Below are positions 3,001 to 6,000 of a DNA stretch of 28,148 nucleotides, piece by piece (the stretch's first letter is position 1; the number at the start of each line of letters is the position of its first letter). The DNA is from a virus: the UHGV virus genome UHGV-0040697. One strand, 5' to 3'. The position numbers are program-made.

Positions 3001-6000
3001 GATAGAAACGTCACGCAACTCACAGTAGCCATTACAAAGCTCATCTGCGGGTGGGCTTTGTAATGGCTTATTCGTAGTTGTCACCAGGGAAGTATTCCTG
3101 AAACTTTGATTTTGGGAGCTGGGTTTTCGCGAAGTTCGCAAGCCTTCCTCTTGTAAGCATGTAGTCACACCCACCTTCTTGTTTGAGAAGGTCACCAGCT
3201 AATGTCCGATACACAACGTCACTTCGCAAAATTTCAATGGTGGAATTCCTGATGAGAAATGTTTCACACATCGGGCATCTAATTAACCAAGCGGTATCAC
3301 GGCTCTGCCAGGTCGCATCTGAATTGCAAGCCGGGCAGCATTTCTGATCTTCTTGTCCTATGACCATTGTCATGCTCTCGCATAGTGAAGGAATTTTCAG
3401 ATTAACTCATTTTCAGACGCATCGTAATGGCTTAAGGAAACAATTAATGCCACCACGTACACCAAAAGCCTGCCGCGTTCGCGGTTGCCGCAATACCACT
3501 ACTGACTCGTCAGGCTATTGCGAAAGCCACAAAAGCGAAGGCTGGAAGCAATACAAACCAGGCCTGTCACGTCATCAGCGCGGTTACGGTTCGAAGTGGG
3601 ATACCATCCGTGAACGTGTGCTGAAGCGTGACAAAGGCCTGTGTCAGTTATGTCTGCGTGCCGGTGTGGTGCGTGAGGCGAAAACCGTTGACCACATTAT
3701 CCCTAAGGCGCATGGCGGCACTGACGCTGACAGTAATCTGCAGAGCCTGTGCTGGCCATGTCATAAGGCGAAGACGGCCCGTGAACGGTTGAAGTAAGAA
3801 CCAGTTCCCACAGCCAGAGGGGAGGGGCGGGTCAAATCCCTGTGACCTGACGTCTTCCGGACTGCCCGCCCCATCGTTTTTTTATACCCGCGAAAAATGA
3901 AATTTAACCAGGAGTGCCGCATATGGCTGGAACGGCGGGGCGTTCCGGGCGTCGCCCTAAGCCAACGGCGCGCAAGGCGCTGGCCGGAAACCCCGGCAAG
4001 CGAGCCCTGAACAAAGATGAACCTGTTTTTACGCCCATCAAAGGTGTTGAGCCACCGGAGTGGTTCGCTGAAGAAGAGCTTCCTCTCGCCACGATCATGT
4101 GGCAACTGACAACCAAAGAACTCTGCGGTCAGGGCCTGCTGTGCGTGACTGACCTCGCAGTGCTTGAGCGGTGGTGCGTGGCCTATGAGTTCTGGCGACG
4201 TGCCGTGAAAAATATTGCCAGACAGGGCAACACCATCACCGGTGCAATGGGCGGCATGGTCAAAAATCCGGAGCTGACCGCCAAGAAAGAACAGGAGTCC
4301 GAGATGAGCAGCACGGGGGCAATGCTCGGACTCGACCCCAGCAGCCGCCAGCGTCTGATTGGCCTGGCGGGGCAGAAGAAAGCCACTAACCCGTTTCTGA
4401 AAATCATCGAATCATGAGCCGGAAATCTTACCCCAACGTAAATGCTGCCAATCAGTATGCCCGTGATGTCGTGCGCGGAAAGATTGTGGCCTGCCAGTTT
4501 GTGATTCAGGCCTGCCAGCGCCATCTTGATGACCTGATGGCGGAAAAAAGTAAGTCGTTTCGTTACCGCTTCGACAAGGACCTGGCTGAACGGGCCGCCA
4601 AATTTATTCAGCTGTTGCCGCACACCAAGGGTGAGTGGGCATTTAAACGGATGCCCATCACGCTGGAGCCGTGGCAGCTATTTGTGATCTGCTGTGCGTT
4701 TGGCTGGGTCAATAAAGGCTCCCGATTGCGCCGCTTCCGGGAGGTGTATACCGAAATCCCCCGTAAGAACGGCAAATCGGCAATCTCTGCCGGTGTTGCC
4801 CTTTATTGTTTTGCCTGTGATAACGAGTTTGGCGCGGAAGTGTATTCCGGTGCCACGACGGAGAAACAGGCGTGGGAAGTCTTTCGTCCGGCACGACTGA
4901 TGTGTAAACGCACACCCATGCTGACGGAAGCGTTCGGGATTGAGGTTAACGCCTCAAACATGAACCGTCCGGAGGATGGTGCGCGTTTTGAACCGCTGAT
5001 CGGTAACCCTGGTGATGGTTCATCACCCCACTGTGCGGTGGTGGATGAATATCACGAGCACGCCACAGATGCGCTTTACACCACGATGCTTACCGGGATG
5101 GGGGCGCGACGTCAGCCACTGATGTGGGCTATCACTACCGCCGGGTACAACATTGAGGGGCCGTGCTACGACAAACGGCGGGAAGTCATCGAGATGCTCA
5201 ACGGTTCGGTACCCAACGATGAACTGTTCGGGATCATCTATACCGTTGATGAAGGTGACGACTGGACCGACCCGCAGGTGCTGGAAAAAGCCAATCCAAA
5301 TATTGGCGTGTCGGTTTATCGCGAATTTTTGTTAAGTCAGCAGCAGCGTGCGAAAAATAACGCCCGTCTGGCAAACGTCTTTAAAACAAAACACCTCAAT
5401 ATCTGGGTGTCGGCGCGTTCGGCGTATTTCAACCTGGTAAGCTGGCAGAGCTGCGAGGATAAATCACTGACCCTTGAGCAGTTCGAGGGGCAGCCGTGCA
5501 TTCTGGCCTTTGACCTGGCGCGTAAGCTGGATATGAACAGCATGGCGCGACTTTATACCCGCGAGATTGACGGTAAAACGCATTACTACAGTGTGGCCCC
5601 GCGTTTCTGGGTACCGTATGACACGGTGTACAGCGTCGAGAAAAATGAAGATCGACGGACAGCCGAACGCTTTCAGAAATGGGTGGAAATGGGCGTCCTG
5701 ACCGTTACCGATGGTGCAGAGGTGGATTATCGCTACATCCTCGAAGAGGCCAAAGCGGCGAACAAAATCAGCCCGGTCAGCGAGTCACCCATCGACCCCT
5801 TCGGGGCGACCGGGCTCTCACATGACCTTGCTGATGAAGACCTGAATCCCGTCACTATCATTCAGAACTACACCAACATGTCCGACCCGATGAAAGAGCT
5901 GGAAGCGGCAATTGAATCGGGGCGCTTTCATCATGATGGCAATCCCATCATGACCTGGTGTATCGGCAATGTGGTCGGCAAAACCATTCCGGGTAACGAT

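Follow-up and report, generated by a model that had tools for sequence, protein, structure and literature searches.

The sequence analysed here is a 28,148-nt window of the UHGV virus genome UHGV-0040697, and all coordinates refer to that whole window. Its first 22 kb make up the late region of a temperate E. coli or Shigella myovirus that is SfV/SfII-like. Between the stop codon of the last lysis gene, which encodes the Rz1-like protein LysC, and the start codon of a packaging-associated HNH endonuclease gene is a 418-bp insert (3029-3446, GC content 0.445). The insert carries an open reading frame (ORF) on the minus strand that predicts a small protein with a zinc ribbon. The evidence supports the view that this insert is a self-contained moron cassette. 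Its features and the two genes that flank it are listed below; residue numbers follow the 99-aa product.

2705-3028, plus strand: Rz1-like o-spanin gene LysC, the last lysis gene, flanking the cassette (Pfam PF23793, 3.6e-18; RefSeq annotation)
3027-3068, no strand assigned: inverted repeat I1, a hairpin with 17-nt arms (3027-3043 and 3052-3068) and an 8-nt loop
3055-3070, plus strand: left copy of the 16-nt direct repeat D1, GCTTTGTAATGGCTTA, in the 3′ arm of the hairpin and containing the ORF stop codon; spacing to the right copy 364 nt
3068-3367, minus strand: zinc-ribbon coding sequence, 99 aa plus stop, with a conserved ATG at 3367; product MVIGQEDQKCCPACNSDATW...YFPGDNYE
3071-3247, minus strand: C-terminal four-helix domain, residues 41-99 (helices 41-49, 51-64, 73-83 and 86-92, and an F/Y-P-G tail)
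3251-3352, minus strand: N-terminal four-strand zinc ribbon, residues 6-39 (AlphaFold2 strands 6-10, 17-22, 27-31 and 35-39)
3335-3337, 3326-3328, 3275-3277 and 3266-3268, minus strand: predicted metal ligands C11, C14, C31 and C34, respectively, all in invariant columns
3368-3436, minus strand: conserved upstream block, putative promoter and 5′ untranslated region
3393-3401 and 3409-3417: two copies of TCTGAAAAT in the upstream block
3399-3404, minus strand: -10-like hexamer TAATCT, with a 17-nt spacer to the -35-like hexamer
3422-3427, minus strand: -35-like hexamer TTACGA
3419-3434, plus strand: right copy of direct repeat D1, GCATCGTAATGGCTTA, at the cassette's upstream border and 12 nt from the start codon of HNH
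3447-3797, plus strand: packaging-associated HNH endonuclease gene, flanking the cassette (Pfam HNH, 2.2e-16)

The initial annotation of this stretch described a 101-aa ORF at 3068..3373 on the minus strand, and the ORF is present with the sequence given there. It is, as had been claimed, the sole minus-strand gene of the late operon, a statement that holds between the holin gene (1599) and the tail-fibre assembly gene (21827). Its GC content of 0.457 is below that of the neighbouring genes (LysC, 0.562; HNH, 0.556; the terminase small subunit gene TerS, 0.591). The two Cys pairs, CCPAC and CPMC, are found 16 residues apart (CPxC-x16-CxxC). The reported absence of a signal peptide and lipobox also agrees with the sequence, as the N-terminus (MVIGQEDQK) is hydrophilic and the maximum Kyte-Doolittle value of any 19-residue window is 0.63. 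Only the start needs revision. Every homologue begins at the second ATG (MVIGQ...), making 3367 the likely start and the product 99 aa in length, and the in-frame ATG at 3373 is specific to the lineage of the window.

The zinc-ribbon ORF is a real gene under purifying selection. In a set comprising the window and three metagenome or isolate contigs with 80-90% protein identity, the ratio of nonsynonymous to synonymous substitution rates (dN/dS) is 0.07-0.14 at a dS of 0.59-1.67 (six pairwise comparisons), and the variable columns at codon positions 1, 2 and 3 number 21, 16 and 55. Alternative frames each contain 3-13 stops in the homologue comparison, and the plus-strand ORF at 3183-3347 was rejected together with the other frames because they are full of stops in homologues. 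Conservation in related prophages, on which the initial annotation had made the case for the gene depend, extends to an intact frame in 17 protein clusters down to 38% identity, with the exception of one frameshifted contig. This contig (P0005, 148 aa, on a 972-nt ENA contig) is the only disrupted copy seen. After residue 59 it shifts into the frame of a 91-aa ORF found in the window at 2920..3195 on the minus strand, and continues through the hairpin into LysC antisense, representing either a sequencing error or a decayed copy.

Of 5426 complete E. coli genomes, 32 carry the zinc-ribbon ORF sequence, and in all of these the RefSeq annotation, produced with the Prokaryotic Genome Annotation Pipeline (PGAP), has no feature in the 418-nt gap (e.g. 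L001 4130-4547 and L002 1630-2047). The RefSeq annotation thereby implies that there is no gene but a chance ORF in a non-coding spacer, and the window does have many chance minus-strand ORFs of similar length. The substitution pattern already refutes this, as dN/dS remains at 0.07-0.14 at dS values of up to 1.67 and changes are concentrated at the third codon position. The frame that stays open across the 17 clusters, the confident AlphaFold2 model and the fact that GenBank submitters annotate the ORF as a hypothetical protein argue the same way, and the probability that this is not a gene is negligible. The empty gap in RefSeq is a systematic annotation miss of a selected gene.

The borders of the insert are defined by comparison with phages that lack it. 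In SfV and vB_EcoM-720R4 the site is empty, with only 26 nt between the Rz1 stop codon and the HNH ATG, and the flanking genes are ~90% identical. Similarity to homologues from three other backbones extends from ~70 nt upstream of the ATG to ~45 nt past the stop codon. For four homologues, the mean identity is 76% in the upstream block, 87%, 91% and 66% at codon positions 1, 2 and 3, and 70% in the hairpin; outside these limits it drops to 27-39%, the value further upstream being 39%. The upstream block and the 3′ hairpin travel with the ORF into backbones that have unrelated terminases and different lysis genes. The cassette is bracketed by direct repeat D1, the right copy being a second copy of the 3′ arm of the hairpin, and a CATTACG half-site is kept at the upstream border in four close homologues. 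A transposon or a miniature inverted-repeat transposable element was considered and rejected, as the insert, although bracketed by the 16-nt repeat, lacks both terminal inverted repeats and a transposase.

Morons, as defined by Juhala and Hendrix, have precedents for expression from repressed prophages (PMC3594210). The proposal that the ORF belongs to such an element holds by structural criteria, as the insert is extra DNA relative to SfV and 720R4, has deviant GC content and sharp borders, and recurs in at least 8 backbones. Its location was correctly likened to the slot of bor in lambda, since it follows Rz/Rz1 in convergent orientation, with a hairpin separating the two stop codons.

Profile searching enlarged the family to 17 protein clusters that share 38-98% identity and are 96-104 aa long, apart from the frameshifted contig. 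Invariant residues are M1, G4, C11, P12, C14, S16, A18, W20, C31, C34, I39, A57, L60, L71, T72 and A80. The four predicted ligands, C11, C14, C31 and C34, are present in 17 of 17 members, and C10 and C67 are not invariant. The commonest variant is present on >1000 contigs, which come from E. coli, Shigella sonnei and Salmonella, and distant members occur in Enterobacter hormaechei, E. kobei, E. cloacae and E. quasiroggenkampii. With about 20 protein clusters in all, the family is tiny and confined to E. coli, Shigella, Salmonella and Enterobacter prophages. When 1.84 billion representatives were searched exhaustively with HMMER, only 4 matches were returned; tblastn searches of 50,697 phage records with the window protein and the distant member P0007 found nothing, and no member was found among the GTDB species representatives. 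A plasmid search yielded one E. coli record of 1.3 Mb. The database name of every family member is 'hypothetical protein' (e.g. GenBank ARV54384.1).

The orientation of the gene is shared by all loci in which it was read. In eight loci identified by exact protein look-up, it is flanked by lysis genes and the terminase small subunit gene and runs on the opposite strand. The terminases of these loci are of different types, namely P27-type with HNH, lambda GpA with a Nu1-like DUF1441 protein, Terminase_2 with Terminase_6, ParB_N with Terminase_6C, and GIY-YIG/HTH types (HTH, helix-turn-helix), and the holins and endolysins also vary. In 18 further loci from IMG/VR the gene is counter-oriented to essentially all flanking ORFs, and where spot checks were made, terminase genes lay to one side of it and lysis genes to the other. 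The cassette recurs in at least 8 unrelated phage backbones and is counter-oriented in every locus read, and its neighbours, wherever they could be identified, are lysis and terminase genes. Because no neighbouring gene is conserved, the cassette is a single-gene unit. One IMG/VR relative (L032) has a DndB-like gene, associated with DNA-sulfur modification, between the lysis genes and the ORF homologue (5385-6524), and this is another conflict-related gene in the lysis-terminase junction.

AlphaFold2 with a 17-sequence alignment predicts a two-domain protein with a mean predicted local distance difference test score (pLDDT) of 87.9 and a predicted template modelling score of 0.74; the pLDDT of an earlier model was 77.6. 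Across the family the isoelectric point is 4.9-7.7, the net charge is between -5 and +0.7, and no transmembrane segment is predicted. A neutral to mildly acidic family speaks for a role in protein binding and against the protein being a classical DNA binder. The C-terminal domain alone has no match in PDB or Pfam and was found in no other architecture, and HTH models match none of 16 C-terminal domains. An MqsA-type antitoxin, in which a zinc ribbon and an XRE-type HTH are paired with a toxin gene, was rejected for the same lack of an HTH in the 16 domains, and also because there is no conserved toxin gene, the neighbours being different in each backbone.

The initial annotation assigned the protein to no recognisable family. 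This is correct in so far as no model from Pfam, PHROG, NCBIfam or PADLOC reaches threshold, the only matches being to zinc ribbons below it, but is incomplete because 17 of 17 members match the Lar zinc ribbon model PF14354 at sub-threshold level. The best E-value among the 17 is 1.4e-5, none of those scanned reaches the gathering cutoff of 28.6 bits, and two family members carry a precomputed PF14354 tag. The family and RalR of E. coli K-12 have in common the pattern K-x-C-P-x-C-G ... C-x-G-x-C-E-[ST], and hhalign aligns them over 30 columns with a probability of 33%. As PF14354 scores stay below the cutoff and the C-terminal feature of RalR was looked for and is missing, the family should not be filed under Lar. 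A further sequence, P0008 (an 869-aa metagenome protein from ENA/JGI), consists of ~10 tandem units of ~47 residues (..L.EIAE....ETG..VS..KV...AKEKLTPEEY..RFP..) that resemble helices 3-4 and the FPG tail of the C-terminal domain (E = 5e-6 in the exhaustive search; hhalign probability 11%), and it scores just below the threshold of HTH_32.

Upstream of the ORF, the initial annotation had suggested looking for a promoter. A weak sigma-70-like match is found there at a conserved position. In all three subfamilies a TAnnnT hexamer (TAATCT, TATGAT or TACACT) is located 36-39 nt before the ATG, and the upstream sequences otherwise differ. A LexA box or a palindromic operator in the upstream block was rejected, as the candidate palindromes vary between homologues.

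At the other end, the hairpin separates the stop codon of LysC (3026-3028) from that of the convergent ORF (3068-3070) and is a putative 3′ end or terminator for both the cassette and the lysis genes. It follows the ORF stop in most of the 8 homologous loci. In individual RNAfold predictions, the outer stem CATTAT/GTAATG is conserved and the inner stems vary yet pair (GAAGCCC/GGGCTTC, GAAGCTCC/GGAGCTTC and CAGGCA/TGCCTG). This change with retention of pairing in predicted folds is suggestive only. The automatic alignment gives almost no covariation support for the hairpin; this analysis failed because MAFFT misaligned the inner stem, and the individual folds are weaker evidence. An Rfam search returned only noise (E 0.19-0.28) and no match to the hairpin. 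The signals at the two ends can be read as a weak or factor-dependent promoter and a 3′-end or stabiliser hairpin, respectively.

The 42-nt hairpin (CCATTACAAAGCYCATCTRCGGGTGGGCTTKRTAATGG) is also a widespread element that ends the lysis region in lambdoid prophages. Another 88 complete E. coli genomes, as well as HK022, HK446, mEp235 and mEpX2, have the hairpin but not the ORF; examples of hairpin copies are L008 1501-1543, L009 1501-1538, L041 (HK022) 901-942 and L017 ~5870-5910. When relatives are compared, indels start precisely at the 3′ arm of the hairpin (TAATGG|CTTA), where HK022 has ~210 extra nt relative to the O104:H4 prophage and the window has the 364-nt cassette. In L017, a full copy of the hairpin is also present on the upstream side of the ORF. 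The hairpin may, judging from these arrangements, be a recombination joint that moves accessory cassettes between unrelated phages, instead of or besides being a terminator.

The remaining genes of the window relevant to this locus are as follows.

566-1618, plus strand: DNA methylase (N6/N4 DNA methyltransferase) gene, overlapping the holin start at 1599
1599-2030, plus strand: lambda-type holin gene
2034-2510, plus strand: endolysin gene
2494-2886, plus strand: Rz gene
3914-4417, plus strand: P27-family TerS gene
4414-6147, plus strand: terminase large subunit gene TerL, followed by the portal gene
22600-26882, minus strand: cassette with an acyltransferase (acyltransferase_3) gene and GtrA, GtrB and type-specific Gtr (DUF6056) genes, beyond the tail genes

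The portal gene is followed by head genes and Mu-like tail genes, the last of which is the tail-fibre assembly gene at 21827. The window shares 97-98% identity with SfII, SfI, SfIV and SfV from 3817-3874 onward. The linear genomes of these phages start within 3817-3874, which places cos just after HNH. The segment at 22600-26882 is the O-antigen serotype-conversion module that is classical for SfII/SfV-like phages, and in this case an E. coli-type prophage carries it.

A further site of variable content is the methylase slot, from the Q/antiterminator region to the holin gene. In a near-identical prophage of KSC1031, this slot is filled by two minus-strand genes, one KwaB-like and one hypothetical (L001 1063-2474), and IMG/VR relatives have still other gene content there. 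Because the content of the slot differs between relatives, the Q-holin junction is a second accessory-gene hotspot of this phage group. In L017, a methylase of the same type occurs alongside a zinc-ribbon family member. A functional link between the zinc-ribbon ORF and the adjacent methyltransferase was rejected, as the methyltransferase is found only in the window and L017.

The best overall explanation, to which a probability of about 0.6 is given, is that the insert is a moron cassette with autonomous expression whose product modulates phage conflicts by binding. A minus-strand transcript would arise from the gene's own weak sigma-70-type promoter within 3368-3436, would be independent of the Q-dependent late operon with which it converges, and would end at the conserved hairpin at 3027-3068. 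With its own promoter apart from the late operon, the protein would be produced in lysogens and/or immediately after DNA entry and not in late growth. The product is predicted to be soluble, combining a Cys4 zinc ribbon with a private four-helix domain. As it has no catalytic motif, membrane segment or conserved partner gene, stoichiometric action by target binding appears most likely, and the protein may modulate a DNA-processing enzyme in phage-host or phage-phage conflict. That this would take the form of Lar/Ral-style alleviation of host restriction is a tentative suggestion, and exclusion of a competing phage is about as probable.

Several observations weigh against this explanation. Consensus scans of 2900-3600 detect no sigma-70 promoter, including the conserved upstream match, by a 9-of-12 criterion and no intrinsic terminator, and the hairpin has no U-tract on either strand. 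With neither signal in canonical form, autonomous transcription is inferred from conservation only. The match of the window protein to PF14354 (16.2 bits, E = 0.013) is below the cutoff and covers model positions 4-33 of 58, which are only the generic zinc-ribbon half. The C-terminal EALERWNKR segment of RalR is absent from the family. RalR has been reported as a DNase toxin and not only as a restriction alleviator (PMC4041452), and a constitutive restriction alleviator is of no obvious benefit in a lysogen. A Foldseek search of BFVD found nothing at E <0.1, and structure search supports no mechanism.

Other functions have been considered for the protein. In a prophage defence or superinfection exclusion role, the protein made by the lysogen would block a DNA processing or packaging step of incoming heterologous phages. 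The architecture and slot are typical of morons, of which lambda bor, HK97 gp15 and others are lysogen-expressed (PMC3594210), the counter-orientation shields the gene from the late operon, and the C-terminal helices have surface residues that differ strongly from one subfamily to another around an invariant core, as an arms race would predict. However, there is no PADLOC defence model for it (the best, LmuB, has E = 0.065 and 9.5 bits), and a single small cytoplasmic protein without an effector domain would have to perform the block; exclusion is possible but unlikely. Still less probable is a small DNA-binding regulator of prophage or host genes, with the zinc ribbon joined to an HTH-like C-terminal domain and possibly autoregulating through the TCTGAAAAT or CTGA..TCAG motifs upstream. 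The conserved upstream block does contain repeated motifs, and the family profile matched P0008 (E = 5e-6), itself just under the HTH_32 threshold, but the motifs differ between homologues and the link to P0008 is weak by hhalign. The 16 C-terminal domains give no match to HTH models either, and members are neutral to acidic with basic residues in helix 3 that are not conserved.

The least favoured of these functions is that of a RalR-like toxin in a type I toxin-antitoxin or abortive module, silenced by the late-operon transcript or by a small antisense RNA. RalR, the closest named relative of the zinc ribbon, is the reported non-specific DNase toxin with a small RNA antitoxin (PMC4041452), and any late transcription that reads through is necessarily antisense to the gene. 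On the other hand, the similarity is confined to the 30 zinc-ribbon columns, no antisense RNA gene or Rfam match was found, and the gene, with no obvious antitoxin nearby, is stably carried in 32 complete genomes and on >1000 contigs. A toxin is regarded as very improbable.

A further possibility concerns the timing of expression. In lambda, the lysis end of the genome is packaged last and enters the cell first, and cos phages of the type found in the window are taken to do so by analogy. The zinc-ribbon gene is ~450-800 bp from the cos end (~3817-3874). Its promoter would enter before the ORF and point inward, and hence the gene could be the first phage gene expressed on infection, like ocr in T7. 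The family could then be a position-locked anti-restriction or anti-defence factor in which a Lar-like ribbon is combined with a new target-binding domain, though this analogy is speculative and the proposal rather improbable.

The phage moron is a well-known kind of element, and the finding of another cassette would not surprise a phage specialist. The zinc-ribbon protein family of this one is missed by current family libraries and, in the carrier genomes, by RefSeq. The analysis adds a selected gene that RefSeq overlooks in every complete E. coli carrier genome, and defines a small two-domain family without a characterised or structurally similar relative. The strict counter-oriented placement at the lysis-terminase junction of many unrelated backbones makes this gene a clean and cheap candidate for functional screening, well defined and easily testable. 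If it is an anti-restriction or defence factor, it would represent a new small-protein mechanism; if not, it is one more ordinary moron.

Among known systems, YacG, an inhibitor of gyrase, and anti-TRAP can be compared by analogy only. They are in a similar size range and have a Cys4 ribbon and no catalytic motif, and the YacG and Anti-TRAP Pfam matches in a few members (E 0.02-0.04) reflect only generic ribbon geometry. Lar/RalR of the Rac prophage (PF14354) is closer. Both it and members of the zinc-ribbon family are small phage-borne cytoplasmic Cys4-ribbon proteins that are accessory and non-essential; Lar is the best Pfam match of 17 of 17 members, and C11, C14, C31 and C34 align with the cysteines of RalR. 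However, RalR is a single-domain protein of 64 aa with a C-terminal helix (..EKEALERWNKR..) after the ribbon, whereas the family members are 96-104 aa in length and have a 59-residue four-helix domain without that motif. RalR is net basic (by hand count from the sequence) and the zinc-ribbon family is neutral to acidic. RalR also adjoins recT in the early region, whereas the zinc-ribbon gene is at the lysis-terminase junction. The lambda Bor protein, a lipoprotein of the outer membrane, has a signal peptide and a lipobox; the zinc-ribbon protein has neither, shares no sequence similarity with it and has no Bor Pfam match, but like the zinc-ribbon cassette, lambda bor is an add-on that is absent from related phages. 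The cassette differs from a typical moron in that its putative promoter and terminator are non-canonical by consensus scans. It resembles morons of the HK97 gene 15 type in being extra DNA relative to sister phages, with deviant GC content and an ORF that moves together with its own flanking signals.

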